Assembly: GCA_937952285.1 (NCBI GenBank)
Contig: CALFZE010000104.1
Span: 1,932-65,931 of the forward strand
Source of the DNA: an uncultured Bacteriovoracaceae bacterium
Lineage (GTDB): Bacteria > Bdellovibrionota > UBA2428
Direction of reading: 5' to 3'
DNA length: 64,000 nt
The translations under genes were made by a program, and so were the position numbers. Each line of letters opens with the position of its first letter. Position 1 is the stretch's first letter. This document shows positions 20,393 to 63,736 of the stretch, piece by piece. Under the pieces are notes generated by a model, which saw only the letters and a list, made by a program, of their open reading frames with translations, had not been told where the DNA came from and searched no databases.

Positions 20393-21016
20393 ATGCCGAC
20401 GCTCGTCTTATCCCGTCACGGACAATCCGAGTTCAATCTTTCGAACCGCTTCACCGGTTGGCTCGACGTCGAGCTCACCCGTCAAGGCGAAGAAGAAGCC
20501 AAGCGCGCCGGCCAAAAGATCCGCGGGCTCAAGTTCAAGCCCGCCGTCGCCTTCACGAGCGCGCTCCGTCGCGCGCAGAAGACCCTCGATTTCATTCTGG
20601 GCGAGCTGAATTTGCGCGACGCTTTGCCCATCCAGAAAGACCAAGCCCTCAACGAGCGTCACTACGGTGATCTCCAGGGCAAAAACAAGGCCGAGACGGC
20701 CGCCGAGTTCGGCGAAGAACAAGTCAAGATCTGGCGCCGCAGCTACGACATCCCACCCCCGAACGGCGAGAGCCTCAAGGATACGGCGGCGCGCACGCTT
20801 CCGTACTTCGAAGGCAAGATCGTGCCCGAGCTCAAGGCCGGCCGCGACGTTCTCGTCGTCGCGCACGGGAACAGCCTTCGCTCGATCGTCATGTCGATCG
20901 AAAAGATGACTCCCGACGAAATCCTGCGCACGGAAATGGGCACGGGCGAACCGTGGGTCTACCGCGTCGAGGAGCTCCCGAGCGGAGAGCTCCGCTACAC
21001 GCGCCTCGAACCCTGA
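20393..21016 (+). CDS. gpmA: 2,3-bisphosphoglycerate-dependent phosphoglycerate mutase
   Basis: RHGQSEFNLSNRFTGW, LNERHYGDLQG, WRRSYD.PPPNGESLKDT and AHGNSLR. Confidence 0.97.
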   Translation: MPTLVLSRHGQSEFNLSNRFTGWLDVELTRQGEEEAKRAGQKIRGLKFKPAVAFTSALRRAQKTLDFILGELNLRDALPIQKDQALNERHYGDLQGKNKAETAAEFGEEQVKIWRRSYDIPPPNGESLKDTAARTLPYFEGKIVPELKAGRDVLVVAHGNSLRSIVMSIEKMTPDEILRTEMGTGEPWVYRVEELPSGELRYTRLEP

Positions 21017-21040: not shown

Positions 21041-21070
21041 CTTGAACGGCGAAGTTTGCCGCCGTTCAAG
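21041..21070. terminator. Hairpin between convergent gpmA and pif1
   Basis: Perfect 11-bp stem CTTGAACGGCG/CGCCGTTCAAG with an 8-nt loop. No strong U-tract. Confidence 0.5.
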
Positions 21071-22355
21071 TCTCGGCCGTGTCCGCGATCAGGCTTCGAT
21101 GGAAGGCCGCGACCTGCGGATCGGCAAAAATCGATTTTGCGTCCCAGCCGTCGACCGTAAGGTGCTCCGAACTGCGCACGCGGCTAAGCGCGACGTAGGC
21201 TTGGCCCGGCTCCCAAAGCTGCTTGAGTGAAACGATCGCGCGATCGATGGTCGCGCCCTGCGCTTTGTGGATCGTCACGGCGTAGGCCAAGTTCAGCGGC
21301 AAGTTGCGGGCCGCCGCGCGCTCGTTACCCTCGGCATCGAGGATAGAGAACCGCGTCGCTTCGATCTGCGCTTGCTGCCCGTTCATGAGCTCGACGTCCA
21401 CGCTCGTCGCGTTCATCTCGCGCACGAAACCGAGGCTGCCGTTCACCCAACGCCCACGCGGGTCATTCTGGCGGATCATGACGAGGGCCCCGAGCTTGAG
21501 TTCCAGGACTTCGGGCACCGGGGCCTGGGCGACCAGAGTCGCGCGCAGGCGTTCGTCGCCGGAGTAGCTCGTTTCGTAAGTTCGCGGGGTACCCGTCAGC
21601 TTATCGAGGCGGCGGCGGTTGATGGCATCGACGTCGGCCTTCTTGGCGTAAAGGGCCGTCGCCTCGGAGATCTCGTCGCCGGGATTCTTGGAGCGCCACT
21701 CGAGCAGATTACAGACGCGTTCGCTCGCGTGACCGACGCGCACGTCGGCCAGGAACTCGCAGTAGTCCACGTCGCCCTTGGCGCGCATCATTTCGGTCAG
21801 GTGCACCGAGCGGAACTCCGTCGCGGCCCAAGCTTTCGAGAGGAAGGCCCAGTCGCGTTGGCGCGAATCGCGCGAGACCGGCGGCAGCTGCGCGAAGTCC
21901 CCCACGGCCACGACCTTTAATCCGCCCCAGGGGCGAGGATCGTCCCGCACGAGCGAGGCGATGCGCTCGGCCACCGCGAAGGCGAGGCCCGGAATCATGG
22001 AAACCTCGTCGAGCACGAAGCCTTGCGCCTTCTTGAGACGCCGCACGACCCGACGGTCTTTGAGCGCGCGATCCACCGCCGCGTGCGGGCCGCCTTCGAG
22101 GATGCCCAGGCCAAAGAAGCTATGGAAGGTACGCCCGCCCACGAGCACCGCGGCCGCGCCCGTGCTCGCGAGCACGGGAAACTTGAGCGCGTCGAGCCGC
22201 CGCAAGTAAGCCCGCAAAAGATGACTCTTGCCCGTGCCCGCGCCACCGGTGATGAAGACGTTACCGTCTTCGGCGAGGTAACGGAGCGCGAGCGATTGCC
22301 CCTCGTTCAGATCACGATTGAGGGTCGCAAGCAGTTCCGGAAGGAGTGAGGTCAT
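21066..22355 (-). CDS. Pif1-family SF1B DNA helicase
   Basis: FITGGAGTGKS, TLHSF-like TFHSFFG, DEVSM, PWGG..VVAVGDFAQLPPV, LAYAVTIHKAQG and GQAYVALSR. Confidence 0.93.
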   Translation of the reverse strand: MTSLLPELLATLNRDLNEGQSLALRYLAEDGNVFITGGAGTGKSHLLRAYLRRLDALKFPVLASTGAAAVLVGGRTFHSFFGLGILEGGPHAAVDRALKDRRVVRRLKKAQGFVLDEVSMIPGLAFAVAERIASLVRDDPRPWGGLKVVAVGDFAQLPPVSRDSRQRDWAFLSKAWAATEFRSVHLTEMMRAKGDVDYCEFLADVRVGHASERVCNLLEWRSKNPGDEISEATALYAKKADVDAINRRRLDKLTGTPRTYETSYSGDERLRATLVAQAPVPEVLELKLGALVMIRQNDPRGRWVNGSLGFVREMNATSVDVELMNGQQAQIEATRFSILDAEGNERAAARNLPLNLAYAVTIHKAQGATIDRAIVSLKQLWEPGQAYVALSRVRSSEHLTVDGWDAKSIFADPQVAAFHRSLIADTAET

Positions 22356-22603
22356 CCGCGGCGCTTCGCGATCCAGCCGCGGACTTCTTCGACGCCGCGT
22401 AGGAGCGTGCCGTCTTTCAGCTTCAACGCGGGGGGCGTGTCGCCACCGCTTAGAAGGCGAAGCTCGGCAAGCGCCGTTTCGCTCACGTCGATGTTTCGGA
22501 AATCGACTTCGTCCCGGATGCCGGCGTCCACGATGAGCTTGCGAACTTCGGCCGAAGCCACGTCCGCGAGGCGATGAAAGAGTTCATGACGAGCGTCCGA
22601 CAT
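22352..22603 (-). CDS. Small glutaredoxin-like-fold protein lacking CxxC
   Basis: 84 codons from ATG 22603. ELFHR...FRNID....TPPAL....LLRG pattern resembles Grx-fold proteins. 4-nt overlap with pif1. Confidence 0.55.
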   Translation of the reverse strand: MSDARHELFHRLADVASAEVRKLIVDAGIRDEVDFRNIDVSETALAELRLLSGGDTPPALKLKDGTLLRGVEEVRGWIAKRRG

Positions 22604-22681
22604 AGGCCTCCAACCTGCCACTCCCCGCCGGGCGAGCCAAGGCCCCCACGGATCGAGGCGCGCTTCCTGCATCTTGGTTAG

Positions 22682-22849
22682 TTATAACGAGATCAGATTA
22701 CGCTTGGGCGCGTTGGCGCTTTCGCCTGGAAAACGCCGTCTTCGCCTCATTTGACTCAAGAGTTTCACGACTTTCGCCGTTAAGAGCCCTAGTTCCGCTA
22801 GGGCTCTTAGGACTTGCAAGATCTGCAGCGCTAACTGCGGGTCTAGCAT
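22682..22849 (-). CDS. 55-aa Leu-rich peptide with basic patch, copy A (putative type I toxin-like)
   Basis: AGGAGG lies 5 nt before the ATG. Translation: MLDPQLALQILQVLRALAELGLLTAKVVKLLSQMRRRRRFPGESANAPKRNLISL. Paralogous to 62137-62277, with synonymous codon changes. Confidence 0.7.
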   Translation of the reverse strand: MLDPQLALQILQVLRALAELGLLTAKVVKLLSQMRRRRRFPGESANAPKRNLISL

Positions 22850-22874
22850 CAGGACCTCCTCCCGGAGGACCTTC

Positions 22875-22924
22875 CTTGGGCCGACCTCAATCCGTGAGGG
22901 TTAAGGTCGGCCCAAGCAGTTTTT
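22875..22924 (+). terminator. Terminator-like hairpin on the strand antisense to peptide A, just upstream of wzm
   Basis: 13-bp perfect stem CTTGGGCCGACCT/AGGTCGGCCCAAG followed by CAGTTTTT. Confidence 0.55.
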
Positions 22925-22968
22925 AGGGCGCTTTGACCCCCGCCCTTCCAGGGATTATTTCCTACCGC

Positions 22969-47865: not shown

Positions 47866-49062
47866 CTAACGACCGCGGGGCGCTTTCACGAGCGCCTCTA
47901 GCTTGTCCATTTGCGCGTTGATCGAGAAGAACTTCTCGATGAAGGCGCGTCCCTTGCGCCCCAGATCGCCCAGGCGTGCGTCGTCGTTCGCGAGCGCGAC
48001 CATGTCACGGCAGAACTGCTTGTCGTCGGCGATGTCGGAGTAAACGACGCCGCTTTCCTCGTTCGGGAAGAGACGCACGACGTCCGGAAGGGGCGAAGCC
48101 AAAAGCGGCTTCGAGCACGCGAGGTACTGCAGGATCTTGATCGGGATGATGTCGCGCGTGATGTCGTTCAGTTCGAAGGGCAAGAGCGTCAGGTCCGAAC
48201 CCGCGATGTAGCGGGGGACGTCGTCGTAGGGTTTCGATCCGAGCGACGCGAAGGAATCCTGGATCCCCTTTTCCGTCCCCCAACGCTCGAGATCCGCGTT
48301 CAGATCGCCGGGCCCCACGACGAGAAGCTTGAGGCGGGGATTTTTGGCCACGATCGCCGGCCATTCGGCCACAATTTGGCGAAGTCCCGAAAAGGTGTAG
48401 GTCGTCCCCAAGAAGAGCAAAATCTTGGCATCGGCGGGCCACTTGGTCTGCGCCAGGATCCAATCCCGCTGCGCCGGGTTCTCGCGGAAGTACTCCGTGT
48501 CGACGCCGTGCTGGACGACGACGGCCTTGCGGGCCGCTTCCTCGCCCGCCATGTCGCGGATGTATCCGCGCATCTTCTCGTTCGTGAGACAGACCACGTC
48601 GCAGTTCCGGTAGATGTACTTTTCGCCCCAGTAGAGCGGCCAGCGAATCCAGGGGTCCTGACGGAGCTTGTGGTAGACGTCGAGGATCCGGTACACGACC
48701 GGCACCCCGTACTTTTTGGCCAAACGCACGGCCTCGGTCCCGTTGATCGCGACGGAATAGAGGAAAATCACGTCGACGGCCTTGGCCCGCAGCAGCTCCT
48801 CGAGGCGGCGGCTGAAGTTCGCCCGTGCCGTCAGGTAGTTCACGAGAGGCATCTTTACGAAGGGCAGGCTTTCGAGCTCGACCGTGCCGATCCCCGTGCG
48901 GGAGATCTTCTCGCAGTAACCCTTGCCGTCCGAGCTGTCGTCGAAGTCGATGACCCGGACTTCGTGTCCCCGGGCGGCGAAGCGTTCGGCGAAATCCTGG
49001 TACTCGTAGACGACCTTGTGTTTGTAGCTAACTTCGTGCAAAACCAAGATTTTAAGGCCCAT
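47866..49062 (-). CDS. GT4 glycosyltransferase
   Basis: ATG 49062 (MGLKILVLHE). Motifs HGVDT, LFLG, VGPG and PIKILQYLAC.KP. Confidence 0.9.
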   Translation of the reverse strand: MGLKILVLHEVSYKHKVVYEYQDFAERFAARGHEVRVIDFDDSSDGKGYCEKISRTGIGTVELESLPFVKMPLVNYLTARANFSRRLEELLRAKAVDVIFLYSVAINGTEAVRLAKKYGVPVVYRILDVYHKLRQDPWIRWPLYWGEKYIYRNCDVVCLTNEKMRGYIRDMAGEEAARKAVVVQHGVDTEYFRENPAQRDWILAQTKWPADAKILLFLGTTYTFSGLRQIVAEWPAIVAKNPRLKLLVVGPGDLNADLERWGTEKGIQDSFASLGSKPYDDVPRYIAGSDLTLLPFELNDITRDIIPIKILQYLACSKPLLASPLPDVVRLFPNEESGVVYSDIADDKQFCRDMVALANDDARLGDLGRKGRAFIEKFFSINAQMDKLEALVKAPRGR

Positions 49063-58548: not shown

Positions 58549-59346
58549 TCAGTTCCAGGTAACGGGGTACTTGCCGGAGCCCGAGCGCTCGTCGTTGTTG
58601 ACGACCACGCTTAAGCGGCGCTTGAGTTCGTCGCGGTCCATCGGGCGACGACGTCCGAAGGGACCCCCGCCGAAACCGCCCAGATCCTTGCCGAAGAACT
58701 TGAGCAGGAGGTAACCCGTCACGAGCCCACCGAGATGCACGAGGTGAGCCACGCCGCCGCCCGTCTTAGGGTCGCCGTAGAAGACCGCCGAAAGGAACGT
58801 CATCGCGGCCATGAGCGCGGTGAAGTGCTTGGCCTTCATCGGAGCGATGAAGAATACGAGGATCACGGCTTCGCCGAAAAGCATTCCGAAACCGACCATC
58901 AAGCCGTAGAGCGATCCCGAGGCGCCGATCACGGGGATCCCACCGAGTTCCGCCGCGCCACCGTAGCCGAAGAGCGAAAGCGCGAGCCAAACGATCGAGT
59001 GAAGGATGGCGCCGCCCACGGCGCAAAGCCCGTAGAACCAGAGGAAGCGTTTCGTACCCCAACGTCGCTCAAGCTCCGATCCCATCGTGTAGAGGACGAG
59101 CGCGTTGAGCATGAGATGCCCCATCCCCCCGTGGAGGAAGGGGTAAGTCAGGATCTGCCAAAGACGTCCGGAGAAGAAGGCCTCGGGACTGAACCCCAGC
59201 CAGTAGGTGGCCGACACGCCCAAAAAGTTTTCGAGACTGAGCTGAAGCACGAAGCCCACCGCGATCGCGATGAGCAAACCCTTCACGGCGGGCGTCAAGC
59301 GCGGCTGAAACGCCGCCCCGAAGCCACCTTGACCGTAGGCGTTCAT
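58549..59346 (-). CDS. Rhomboid family intramembrane serine protease
   Basis: WQILTYPFLHGG..HL..N, IGASG (catalytic Ser) and AHL.HLGG...G. Confidence 0.95.
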   Translation of the reverse strand: MNAYGQGGFGAAFQPRLTPAVKGLLIAIAVGFVLQLSLENFLGVSATYWLGFSPEAFFSGRLWQILTYPFLHGGMGHLMLNALVLYTMGSELERRWGTKRFLWFYGLCAVGGAILHSIVWLALSLFGYGGAAELGGIPVIGASGSLYGLMVGFGMLFGEAVILVFFIAPMKAKHFTALMAAMTFLSAVFYGDPKTGGGVAHLVHLGGLVTGYLLLKFFGKDLGGFGGGPFGRRRPMDRDELKRRLSVVVNNDERSGSGKYPVTWN

Positions 59347-59669
59347 AAGAGGGTCGCTCCCTTCTCGTCCTTATTTTGTTCGAGCGCGTCCAAACTTTCG
59401 TCGGACAAATCGTAATAAAGGAAAGAGCGAATCGAGTCGGGCAGGAGGTCCGCTTCCCACTCCACGAAACCCGCGGCCGCTCCGAGGGGCACCTCTTCGG
59501 CGGCGGCGAGTCGCTCCTGTTCGAGTTGGTTTTCGAGGGACTGAAGCCCTTCGAGGAGCTGCCGAACCGGAATCGAGGAACGGGCCGAACCCGCGAACGC
59601 GGAGGCCGAGGCCAAGACGGCAAAAAGCCCGAAGCAGATTTTATGCATCCACTTCAGGCTTTTCGACAT
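59343..59669 (-). CDS. Small exported hypothetical protein
   Basis: Signal peptide (SAFA), acidic helical body and 4-nt overlap with the rhomboid gene. Confidence 0.55.
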   Translation of the reverse strand: MSKSLKWMHKICFGLFAVLASASAFAGSARSSIPVRQLLEGLQSLENQLEQERLAAAEEVPLGAAAGFVEWEADLLPDSIRSFLYYDLSDESLDALEQNKDEKGATLL

Positions 59670-59700: not shown

Positions 59701-60510
59701 TTAGAACACTCGGGCCAATTCGATGTAGTACGCGCCGCCCTTCTTCGACATGAGCGTGAAGCCCTTGCCGAAGGCCGAGGGACCGTGGCTGAAGCCCACT
59801 TCGATGCTCGTGTCCCAGATCGCCGGGCTCGAGTAAGCCACGCCGTAGGAGTGGTAGAAGCGGTGCTTGAACGAACCTTCCGTAGCGCCCTGGGCCGCCA
59901 GAACGAGCGCGCCGTCAACGGTCCAGTTGAGGTTCGCCGAGAAGGATTCCGAGATTTGGTAGCTCGGGAGGAACTCGAGCACGTGCGAGTAGATCGCGTT
60001 ACCCGTGCGCTTGTCGCCCGCTTCGCCCGTCGAGAGGACTTGGTAGCGATTGCGCAGAAGGCCGGCCGAAAGGGTCAAACGGCCCAAGATGTTCAGCTTG
60101 CTGTCCAAGAACGAACGCGAGATGTCCGGACGGACCGAAAGCGTACCGAACGAGCCGGCTTCTTGCAGAGCCATCGTCGTCGGCAACGCGTAGCGGTACA
60201 TCATGCCGACCTTCCAAGCGCCGACGCGAGCGAGCGAATTGTCACGCAGGTAGATACGAGCGTAGGTGTGCGAAGCCGAAACCGCGCTCTTGCCACCCGT
60301 CGTCAAGTTGAAGTCCGTGCGGAGCTCGGGGATGAGGGAGTAACGATCGTTGATCTTAACGGTGTTCGCCAAGTAAACGAGACCCGAGAAGTCGCCGACG
60401 ACGGATTCAAAGGTGTTCCCCATCAAGAGAACGACCGTGGTAGGGCCGGCGAAAACGGGCGCCTGGGAAAGGCCCAAAGCCAAAGCAATAATCTTCGAAA
60501 TCTGTTTCAT
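59701..60510 (-). CDS. Putative outer-membrane beta-barrel protein
   Basis: GAGGAG RBS, signal peptide, amphipathic strands and terminal YYIELARVF. Confidence 0.65.
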   Translation of the reverse strand: MKQISKIIALALGLSQAPVFAGPTTVVLLMGNTFESVVGDFSGLVYLANTVKINDRYSLIPELRTDFNLTTGGKSAVSASHTYARIYLRDNSLARVGAWKVGMMYRYALPTTMALQEAGSFGTLSVRPDISRSFLDSKLNILGRLTLSAGLLRNRYQVLSTGEAGDKRTGNAIYSHVLEFLPSYQISESFSANLNWTVDGALVLAAQGATEGSFKHRFYHSYGVAYSSPAIWDTSIEVGFSHGPSAFGKGFTLMSKKGGAYYIELARVF

Positions 60511-60706: not shown

Positions 60707-61990
<1,284 letters not shown>

Positions 61991-62065
61991 AAGTGCCCAC
62001 AGGGATAGCACGACGGCCGGAGCAGGCAACGCCCCCACTGGGACAGGCTCAACGACTTGGCGCGG

Positions 62066-62110
62066 AAAATGCTTGGGCCGATCCTGTCCCACGGACGGGA
62101 TCGGCCCAAG
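62066..62110 (-). terminator. Terminator-like hairpin on the strand antisense to peptide B, upstream of eno
   Basis: Stem CTTGGGCCGATCC/GGATCGGCCCAAG (62072-62110), followed on the minus strand by CATTTT. Confidence 0.5.
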
Positions 62111-62136
62111 GAAGGACCCCTTGAAAGGAGGTCCTT

Positions 62137-62277
62137 ATGCAAGACTGGCAGTTAGCCCTGCTTATCCTGCAAGTACTGAGAGAACTAGCAGTGTTGCTAG
62201 TTCTCCTTTCGGCGAAAGCCGAAAGGCTCTTGAGTCGTAAAAACCGAAGAAAGCGTCGATCCTCGCGGTCAAGCTAA
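62137..62277 (+). CDS. 46-aa hydrophobic peptide with basic tail, copy B (putative type I toxin-like)
   Basis: AAGGAGG lies 5 nt before the ATG. Translation: MQDWQLALLILQVLRELAVLLVLLSAKAERLLSRKNRRKRRSSRSS. Confidence 0.7.
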   Translation: MQDWQLALLILQVLRELAVLLVLLSAKAERLLSRKNRRKRRSSRSS

Positions 62278-62341
62278 ACCGACGTTCGGCGTGATCCGAA
62301 CCTAGCGGGCAAGGAAAGCCCCATTCCGTCCGGGGGACGCC

Positions 62342-63736
62342 TTACTTGTTGTAATAGGGATCTTCGACGCTCTGACCGTCCGACTTCAACCGAAGTCCCG
62401 GAGCGAGAATCGCGTTGGGATCGTTCGCGTTAGCCCAAGGCGGCAACGGAAGTTTGTTGTCCTCCGTAAAGGCGCGATGATTGTAGTTGAAGTTTTTCGG
62501 TCGTTCCCAAACTCGGAGGTCTCCGTTTGCGTCCCGCATGACCTCCCAGCGGCGGCCGGAAACGGGATTCACCCACACCGCGGATGAGAATTGTTCCTCA
62601 CCACGGAAATCGAGCCCAAAACCCGAAAGCTCCGGGCTCGAGTTAGGGTTCGACGCTCGAAAGCGTGCGACCTCCTGTCCGAACTCCGAGTCCGCCGGAA
62701 GCCGTTTGGCGAAGCCTTCCCGTAGCAATTTTTCCGTCTCGCTTCGCTGGGCGTTCGACAAAAGTTCGAGATTCCCGAAGCCGTTCTTAGCCTTGTACCA
62801 CGGCAAGCTTTCGGCAATGTACTCCGCCTTCTGCTCTATCTGCTCTTCGGTCCACTCCGGAAAGCGTTTCCGAATCTCGCGGAGGTAGTGCTCTTTGACG
62901 AGCGGGCGCTCGGGATCAACGTCGAGAGTCGCATCCGTGATGATGAGGTCCTTGGGATCGACAGGCGACTCGAGCGGCCTGCCCTCTTTCACTTCGTGTT
63001 TAAGAACGACGCTCGGGACATTGTCGCAGGCGAGTCCGAACTCGCGTCTATCGGGGATGGGTAAATCGACTCGGTCGAGGGTCGAGGCACCTTCGGGTAT
63101 CACAATCGCAAAACTCGCCGTACCGATCTTGAGATAGAAAGTGAGCACACGTGGCTGTCCAGGTACCGAGGCTTTCGCAACGACCAAGTTCACTACCTCT
63201 GCGGTGCCTACATGGTCGCCAGTCAGTGCCTCGGGCACCTTTTGGGCAGCCACATTTCTTCGCAAGGCATAAACCTTATCGAGAAGCGCGAAAAACTTCG
63301 CAGCCGGCTCGGGCCGATTGCGATCAAATGTTTCGAGCTCGGCCTCCAAGGCCTTGAGCTTGTCTTTATCCTGCTTGTACTTGGAGGCACGTTCGGACAA
63401 AAAGCCCCTCAATCGAGCGTTCAGAGGGGCGAGATTTTTGGGATCGAAGTTTCCGACCTGTCCGAGCGTGGCCCCCAAGGCGTTCACAAAGTTTGTCGGC
63501 TTCAAAGTGTCACGACGAGTGAACTCGCCGTCGATGTTCCCTGCGAACCAATGCCGGGCACAAAGAATGTCGCAAAGTCCGCGAGAAGGGTGATCCAGAG
63601 AGAGAGCCTCTTTTGTGTCCGCTCCACAAAGCTGCGGGGACTGGCCCGACTTGACGAGTTCCTCGATGACTTTCTTCTCATGCGCGGATCCGTGGGACAC
63701 GGCAAAGAGCACGAAAAGTCCGATGAGAGCTTTCAT
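62342..63736 (-). CDS. Secreted hypothetical protein
   Basis: 464-aa ORF with a signal peptide (SHGSA). No family recognised. Confidence 0.7.
   Translation of the reverse strand: MKALIGLFVLFAVSHGSAHEKKVIEELVKSGQSPQLCGADTKEALSLDHPSRGLCDILCARHWFAGNIDGEFTRRDTLKPTNFVNALGATLGQVGNFDPKNLAPLNARLRGFLSERASKYKQDKDKLKALEAELETFDRNRPEPAAKFFALLDKVYALRRNVAAQKVPEALTGDHVGTAEVVNLVVAKASVPGQPRVLTFYLKIGTASFAIVIPEGASTLDRVDLPIPDRREFGLACDNVPSVVLKHEVKEGRPLESPVDPKDLIITDATLDVDPERPLVKEHYLREIRKRFPEWTEEQIEQKAEYIAESLPWYKAKNGFGNLELLSNAQRSETEKLLREGFAKRLPADSEFGQEVARFRASNPNSSPELSGFGLDFRGEEQFSSAVWVNPVSGRRWEVMRDANGDLRVWERPKNFNYNHRAFTEDNKLPLPPWANANDPNAILAPGLRLKSDGQSVEDPYYNK

Follow-up and report, generated by a model that had tools for sequence, protein, structure and literature searches.

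A putative type I toxin-like peptide family with a strongly folded messenger RNA in an uncultured Bacteriovoracaceae bacterium

The stretch of DNA analysed here (the window, 64,000 nt) belongs to contig CALFZE010000104.1 in assembly GCA_937952285.1, from an uncultured Bacteriovoracaceae bacterium. In the source assembly, which derives from a bioreactor-sludge metagenome, gene calling placed no open reading frame (ORF) in the 351-nt gap that separates the enolase gene, eno, from the next gene. The plus strand of this gap contains, at 62072–62277, an 18-bp hairpin (H1), a second hairpin that buries the ribosome binding site (H2) and an ORF of 46 codons, which together make up the core of the unit studied here, designated copy B. 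A previous reading of the window from its letters alone (the sequence-only reading) had described this arrangement, and its details held when examined: the near-perfect 5′ hairpin is present at 62072–62110; the Shine-Dalgarno sequence (SD) AGGAGG (62126–62131) lies wholly within the 3′ arm of H2 and is fully paired with an upstream anti-SD; the ORF missed by gene calling does start with the ATG at 62137; and eno, on the minus strand, starts at 61990, 82 nt from H1. The whole unit is, however, larger than the 62063–62277 proposed there, spanning ca. 62058–62349 (ca. 290 nt), with putative ends set by sequence conservation and hairpins. Its terminator-like tail overlaps the stop codon (62342–62344) of a convergent gene of 464 codons. 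The features of the unit are listed in Table 1.

A diverged relative, copy A, occupies 22682–22918 on the minus strand and is 74 % identical in DNA to copy B over 174 nt, bearing out the earlier claim of two diverged copies in the window. Their peptides are 56 % identical by tblastn and 58 % in a MAFFT alignment, sharing the motif M.D.QLAL.ILQVLR.LA.L...AK...LLS...RR.R exactly as first written. Both copies adopt one and the same fold of five consecutive hairpins, with z-scores for stability of −6.8 (copy B) and −6.1 (copy A), and in neither case was any of 200 shuffled sequences as stable. There are only these two copies in the window. A search of it with a covariance model of A and B, all filters disabled, gave a single other match, a weak one; this candidate third copy (47919–48073, 14.6 bits) was rejected, as it lies inside a long coding sequence and bears no sequence resemblance to the others.

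A profile of the two peptides, run exhaustively with HMMER against 1.84 billion cluster representatives, found one protein, P0003 (55 amino acids, E = 1.6e-5). This protein and its cluster mates P0004 and P0005 are encoded on three different contigs of another metagenome (L031–L033), with ca. 49 % G+C versus 61 % in the window; one of these three copies is also found in NCBI assembly GCA_041442895.1. With the covariance model, for which only A and B had served as input, the three copies score 66–72 bits (E about 1e-18 to 1e-20). Gene calling placed the start of these proteins at an in-frame ATG further upstream; the counterpart of the ATG of copy B, preceded by AAGGAG with the same 5-nt spacing, yields 46 amino acids in each. 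The three paralogs are ca. 93–95 % identical and encode intact ORFs whose peptides are 89–93 % identical. The family thus amounts to five copies in two uncultured organisms, representing three independent lineages (A, B and the second organism). All five are situated in different genomic contexts, between unrelated housekeeping genes: in the second organism, L031 has sugar epimerases next to its copy, L032 a thiolase and a tRNA-Leu, and L033 a UbiE-type methyltransferase, and the neighbour proteins on these contigs have no counterpart among those of the window. The tRNA-Leu gene (L032, 3393–3476, minus strand) is convergent to the copy and directly follows it.

The five-copy alignment strongly supports the local hairpins. 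Standard pairs fill 92.6 % of the cells of the paired columns, compared with 35–48 % when the 3′ partners are slid by one to three columns, and both partners have changed in 13 pairs, compared with zero to five in the slid controls. None of 500 column shuffles reached the observed pairing, covariation score or number of compensated pairs. Helix 1 (H1) contributes five pairs with both-sided changes and H4 (helix 5) another four, being 97.8 % paired; H2 (helix 2) is 100 % paired in the five copies, with two compensated pairs and with the whole SD paired in each of them. H5 and its flank are invariant across copies, even at third codon positions. The lower stem of H1 is a perfect palindrome, identical in A and B, and the local helices of these two copies include five G.U pairs and no A.C.

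The ORF is conserved as well, and in ways expected of a coding sequence. The start codon and the SD are kept in all five copies with an identical 5-nt spacing; the ORF has 46 codons in four copies and 55 in the other, in units of about 285–300 nt, and its frame is the only one open in all five. Indels between lineages are of 9 and 3 nt within the ORF, all of them in frame, and of 1 nt in the 5′ untranslated region. The ratio of nonsynonymous to synonymous substitution rates (dN/dS) is 0.32–0.67 in the ten pairwise comparisons, and for A versus B none of the other five frames gives a ratio as low as that of the ORF frame. Since many synonymous sites are locked in helices, these values probably understate the constraint at the protein level. 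Additionally, basic residues are retained through multi-base codon changes, as with AGG, AAA and CGA at residue 30 and CGT, CGT and AGA at residue 40. Both the ORF and the helices are under selection. The sequence-only reading had made its proposal depend on conservation of the ORF among homologous elements, and the ORF is kept in the second organism.

AlphaFold modelled the peptide as a single uninterrupted helix from residue 2 to residue 45, with a mean predicted local distance difference test score (pLDDT) of 89. Its net charge ranges from +7 to +10 and its hydrophobic moment from 0.33 to 0.41; Gln12, Arg15 and Lys27 are invariant in the five copies, and Glu16 is present in four. The apparent insertion energy of the best 19-residue window, calculated on a position-independent scale, is positive in every copy, from +0.8 (copy B) to +6.6 kcal/mol. 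The peptide is therefore, as modelled, an amphipathic and strongly cationic helix with an Arg/Lys tail rather than a plain transmembrane segment. Of the earlier description of a membrane-type peptide with a basic tail, the long helix and the Arg/Lys tail stand, whereas the transmembrane character is only marginal.

Beyond the local hairpins, the top of H1 (site X) can pair with a site downstream of the ORF (site Y), which lies at a constant 260–267 nt from the base of H1 in the five copies. These two partners of the H1 top, local or distant, are mutually exclusive. The X/Y duplex comprises 17–19 bp. The cognate 5′/3′ duplexes (48-nt and 38-nt flanks) have energies of −35 to −47 kcal/mol, versus −18 to −28 for shuffled sequences, with zero to four of 500 shuffles as good as the cognate pair. 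Pairing is also copy-specific, because the cognate X/Y duplexes reach −32.0 (B) and −35.2 kcal/mol (A) compared with −24.3 and −20.8 for the A/B cross-pairs, and X and Y co-vary, both being 1 nt shorter in copy B (in X, in the loop). The X/Y duplexes contain eight non-Watson-Crick pairs which, read in the sense orientation, are all G.U and never A.C; together with the same bias in the local helices of A and B, this favours pairing of the sense-strand RNA over mere inverted repeats in DNA. The minimum-energy fold of the full-length sequence includes the fold-back in two of the three second-organism copies and, for an RNA that begins 14 nt inside H1, in every one of the five. Similarity among the second-organism paralogs extends from ca. 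15 nt upstream of H1, at the block CTGGCACGAATATTGA, to a T-tailed hairpin ca. 130 nt past the stop codon, and terminator-like 3′ hairpins were flagged in copy B, L031 and L033.

Table 1. Positions in the window of the features of copies B and A.
Feature	Position	Strand	Description
Copy B, conserved 5′ boundary block	62058–62072	+	TGGCGCGGAAAATGC; precedes H1; candidate promoter of the unit
Copy B, H1	62072–62110	+	18-bp 5′ hairpin: 17 Watson-Crick pairs and one G.U, loop CAC
Copy B, X (top of H1)	about 62083–62105	+	End of 5′ arm, loop and 3′ arm; complementary to Y
Copy B, H2	62112–62136	+	AAGGACCCCUUGAAAGGAGGUCCUU; anti-SD/SD hairpin
Copy B, ORF	62137–62277	+	ATG at 62137, 46 codons and stop; encodes MQDWQLALLILQVLRELAVLLVLLSAKAERLLSRKNRRKRRSSRSS
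Copy B, H3	62138–62171	+	Inside the ORF; pairs UG of the start codon; loop contains UUAG
Copy B, H4	62180–62205	+	11-bp hairpin within the ORF
Copy B, H5	62206–62225	+	Within the ORF; GAAA (GNRA) tetraloop; nearly invariant, including third codon positions
Copy B, Y (3′ site)	62317–62342	+	Reverse complement of H1 top; 19-pair 5′-3′ duplex, −32 kcal/mol
Copy B, terminator-like hairpin	62327–62349	+	CGTCCGGGGGACG and T-rich tail
Copy A, H1	22874–22918	−	5′ hairpin
Copy A, H2	22851–22872	−	Anti-SD/SD hairpin, SD GGAGG
Copy A, ORF	22682–22849	−	55 codons and stop
Copy A, Y (3′ site)	22639–22664	−	19-pair duplex with the H1 top of copy A, −35 kcal/mol

These features are best explained by a self-contained transcription unit of ca. 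290 nt whose mRNA is built to keep its peptide untranslated, and we consider, with a probability of roughly one half, that it represents a new family of type I toxin-like peptides, the peptide being a putative toxin. Criteria for the mRNAs of type I toxins are available from the T1TAdb database (PMC8594479), with further ones for their architecture in PMC6733600. The former comprise a 150–400-nt mRNA encoding 20–60 amino acids, an antisense RNA of 60–200 nt and toxicity of the peptide, which in most families is hydrophobic and membrane-spanning (PMC8594479). The units described here agree with the class in their length of 285–300 nt and their 46–55 codons, in the sequestration of the SD by an anti-SD (H2) in all five copies and, in silico, in combining a 5′ stem-loop, a 3′ terminator stem-loop and long-distance pairing between both ends. 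The type I-like inference of the sequence-only reading is thus supported by this architecture and by the multiple copies, but not by an antisense RNA, which was not found in the five units.

By analogy with hok and aapA, H1 and H2 would form first, during transcription, and block the loading of ribosomes, with translation doubly masked by the predicted burial of the SD in H2 and of the AUG in H3. The finished transcript might then lock into the fold-back, until one of its ends is trimmed by a nuclease, or some other trigger acts, and a form open to translation is released. The peptide would act on the inner membrane in a TisB-like manner, damaging or depolarising it and slowing or killing the cell; an antisense RNA, none having been found here, would normally neutralise the active mRNA.

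Several observations weigh against such a toxin. The pairing statistics come from an alignment fitted to the covariance model and from only three independent lineages, and dN/dS is difficult to read where synonymous sites are also held by RNA structure. When fully transcribed, the local 18-bp H1 of copies A and B beats the fold-back, and the fold-back leaves the SD uncovered, unlike in hok and aapA. The propensity of the peptide to span a membrane is marginal, its hydrophobic stretch containing conserved Gln, Arg and Glu residues. In none of the five units was a sigma-70-like promoter detected on either strand, although the promoter types of the hosts may differ, and their antisense strands carry no positionally conserved −10 motif. 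Likewise, there was no match to an Rfam antitoxin family and no antisense RNA gene was located on the five units. Two weak hints of antisense signals were nevertheless observed. Read in antisense, H1 is followed by four U in copy B (62055–62072) and five in copy A (22914–22935), an arrangement that could terminate antisense or incoming transcription, for instance upstream of eno; and there is an antisense hairpin with a T-run at the 3′ end of the ORF in L031 and L032.

The 5′ boundary offers a candidate promoter of another type. Blocks matching 62058–62072 occur at an equal distance from H1 in L031–L033 (TGGCACGAATATTGA, TGGCACGATTTATGT), where the similarity among paralogs starts, and the block is absent from copy A. 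The sole match in the window to a pattern derived from these blocks is copy B, and in L032 and L033 it matches only at their elements. The consensus for sigma-54 promoters is TGGCACG-N4-TTGCW, with GG at −24 and GC at −12. Compared with it, the block of copy B (TGGCGCG-GAAA-ATGCT) has the correct GG/GC spacing; in L032 and L033, with TGGCA(T/C)G-AATA-TTGAG, the C at −12 is replaced, L031 has TGGCACG-ATTT-ATGTA, and copy A lacks the GG. We found no sigma-54 activator signature in the window and nothing conserved upstream of the block. Its resemblance to a −24/−12 promoter makes a sigma-54-type start an attractive but unproven proposal, in particular because transcription starting inside the lower stem of H1 would free X for the fold-back. 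It can further be imagined that the ca. 290-nt unit encodes a type I-like killer or stress peptide that operates without any antisense antitoxin, starts at such a promoter, is switched through the choice of the H1 top between its local partner and the 3′ site, and spreads as a unit among sparsely sampled bacterial lineages; in this complete form, the proposal appears doubtful.

As claimed previously, the family appears to be undescribed: there was no match in Rfam, Pfam, NCBIfam, PHROGs, PADLOC or PDB, nor among 5.8 billion predicted proteins other than in the P0003 cluster. Specifically, no Rfam family reached its gathering score on either strand of the window, the best sub-threshold matches having 14–20 bits against thresholds of 37–150; Pfam, including Hok/Gef, gave no match even at E up to 10; the best NCBIfam result was a non-hit of 6.7 bits; PHROGs and PADLOC returned no match, and PDB nothing meaningful. 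No sequence match to Hok/Gef, Ldr, TisB, Fst or other described families of toxin peptides was found. Word-indexed searches of the 5.8 billion predicted proteins with alignments of two and five peptides added nothing to the P0003 cluster, and the DNA pattern GGCCCAAGGAAGG-N6-20-GGAGGTCC, which represents the H1/H2 junction, retrieved only chance matches and unrelated repeats from genome, metagenome and viral contigs. An association with viruses was rejected, with zero matches in two more scans of viral contigs with conserved blocks. The pattern scans also recovered two unrelated types of sequence. One is a near-identical terminator hairpin, GGCCCAAGGAAGGTCCTCTGTTGGGAGGTCCTCTTTGTTTT, from a conserved locus in marine metagenomes and a Planctomycetota genome bin (loci L003, L005–L011, L017, L018, L022 and L025); the other is a repeat family (…ATGGGCCCAAGGAAGGAACCATGTGATGGAGGTCCAAATCCCCCATGGGAA…) that is identical in the metagenome contigs L013, L014, L020 and L021 and diverged in L015 and L019.

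Among known systems, hok/Sok, from plasmid R1 and the chromosomes of enterobacteria, also encodes a small peptide in an extensively folded mRNA a few hundred nt long, with a hairpin at its extreme 5′ end, an inert full-length transcript in which the 5′ end pairs with the 3′ end, and multiple chromosomal copies. The folding of hok was itself first inferred from coupled covariations (PMC6733600; PMC8594479). It differs from the units described here in the Hok/Gef domain and in its mok-type overlapping leader ORF, neither of which was found here, and in the masking of the SD, which is due here to a local upstream anti-SD and not to the fold-back; no Sok-like RNA was found either. Hok is also far more hydrophobic than this peptide. 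The aapA/IsoA systems of Helicobacter and Campylobacter share with this family the several chromosomal copies, the local co-transcriptional hairpins that sequester the SD, a stable 5′-3′ interaction in the full-length transcript, compensatory changes in the hairpins and a peptide of about 30–50 amino acids (PMC6733600). However, the fold-back of aapA masks the SD through a third anti-SD, whereas that proposed here uses the 5′ hairpin; IsoA is clearly promoted and overlaps the 5′ part, with no counterpart detected here; and the peptide sequences, as well as the uncultured hosts, are unrelated. With TisB/IstR-1 from E. coli there is a likeness in the peptide, an amphipathic helix with a polar or charged stripe (hydrophobic moment of 0.39 for TisB versus 0.33–0.41 here). 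The primary transcript of tisB is translationally inert, and we take TisB to be the nearest known physical analogue of this peptide. There is no sequence similarity between both, the peptide described here differing in its extended Arg/Lys tail and in a net charge that is much higher, and the antitoxin of TisB is divergent and located upstream, where nothing is conserved in these units.

The alternative that best withstands the evidence is a true small protein without toxin function, either a peripheral membrane or regulatory protein or a basic nucleic-acid-binding one, with the fold of its mRNA adjusting translation, for instance to temperature or stress. All of the coding evidence fits such a protein equally well, and the intact, 89–93 % identical paralogs of the second organism would be as expected of a useful gene as of an addictive one; the marginal transmembrane propensity, the very high charge and the lack of a detected antitoxin on the five units also agree with it. 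What argues for a toxin instead is the combination of scattered multiple copies without conserved neighbours, sequestration of both SD and AUG, and a fold-back, which is typical of type I modules and not of known regulatory small proteins (PMC8594479). We regard a non-toxin protein as possible, though on balance unlikely.

Could the RNA itself be the product, and the ORF incidental? A structured non-coding small RNA in several copies, possibly dependent on sigma-54, would account for the strong covariation in five helices, the invariance of H5 and its flank at third codon positions, dN/dS values only moderately below 1 and the failure of most gene callers to report the ORF. It does not account for an ATG with a strong SD at a fixed spacing in all five copies, for indels that respect the frame in the ORF but not in the untranslated region, for basic residues kept by means of different codons, or for a sole frame open in all copies that has 46 codons in two distant organisms, and we consider it improbable.

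The unit might alternatively act as DNA, with X and Y as inverted repeats serving as sites of recombination or transposition, either in an invertible switch or in a miniature mobile element with a peptide gene as its cargo. The imperfect repeats of 17–19 bp are ca. 230 bp apart and co-vary between copies, the copies lie dispersed over unrelated intergenic sites, with an identity of ca. 93–95 % among the second-organism ones, and the lower stem of H1 is the same perfect palindrome in A and B. Nevertheless, mismatches in the repeats are G.U in the sense strand, eight versus none of the converse; the interior has a single orientation relative to the outer blocks in the five copies; the conserved unit reaches ca. 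30 nt to the left of X; and we found neither flanking direct duplications in the sequences of the five copies nor a recombinase or transposase among the called neighbours. Thus, of the features of an invertible switch or a miniature inverted-repeat element, only the inverted repeats were found, which makes a DNA-level element quite improbable.

Very improbable is a leaderless cationic antimicrobial peptide, exported against competitors in the manner of a bacteriocin, because, despite a cationic amphipathic helix of 46–55 amino acids without a signal peptide and an ABC-2 transporter pair adjoining copy A, neither transporter nor immunity genes adjoin the other four copies, and scattered multiple copies and an mRNA fold that blocks translation are not known as features of bacteriocin loci. 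Three other candidates were rejected: a decoy RNA of the CsrA/Rsm type, because the sub-threshold match to RsmY (14.5 bits) is far under the threshold of 57 and the GGA motifs lie in stems; a cis-regulatory leader for a downstream gene, because the gene that follows copy B is convergent to it and what lies downstream differs from copy to copy; and ends of IS200/IS605-type insertion sequences, because the two palindromes are inverted, not direct, and no transposase is present.

Copy B is surrounded by orphan genes (62342–63736, 59701–60510 and 59343–59669, all on the minus strand), none of which has a Pfam domain. The first of these is the convergent gene, whose 464-amino acid product had as its sole match among the 5.8 billion proteins a 99 % identical fragment of itself, indicating that the host lineage is very poorly sampled. 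This fragment derives from a Joint Genome Institute (JGI) contig from another sample (L034), where the gene (36–1387) was called as two overlapping ORFs of 299 and 157 amino acids, due to either a frameshift or an assembly error. L034 stops short of the element, so that synteny led to no further copy.

Downstream of copy A there is an ORF of 106 amino acids (22352–22672, minus strand), without any Pfam match, whose N-terminal extension overlaps the Y site of copy A (22639–22664). Its real start is probably an internal ATG at 22603, with GGAGG just upstream, which would give a product of 83 amino acids. Beyond this small ORF, on the same strand, lies a PIF1-like helicase gene (21066–22355). A phosphoglycerate-mutase-like gene (His_Phos_1; 20393–21016, plus strand) is situated ca. 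1.7 kb from copy A, while enolase (60707–61990, minus strand) adjoins copy B; the presence of glycolytic neighbours at both copies is probably a coincidence.

Type I families escape gene callers and homology searches, and the unit described here was found only by reading RNA structure and a short ORF jointly. Described type I toxin-antitoxin families, of which T1TAdb holds 24 from 218 species, are almost entirely from Firmicutes, Gamma- and Epsilonproteobacteria (PMC8594479). If the proposed type I toxin-like nature of the peptide is true, a family would be added from uncultured and very sparsely sampled bacteria, in which evolution appears to have reached the same design again, with local hairpins that mask the SD and a 5′-3′ fold-back. 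The five natural variants, with clear compensatory changes and with specificity of pairing between two copies from one genome, make it a compact test case. It may be useful for examining how constraints on protein and RNA structure overlap in an ORF of 140 nt, and whether modules of this kind work without an antisense partner.

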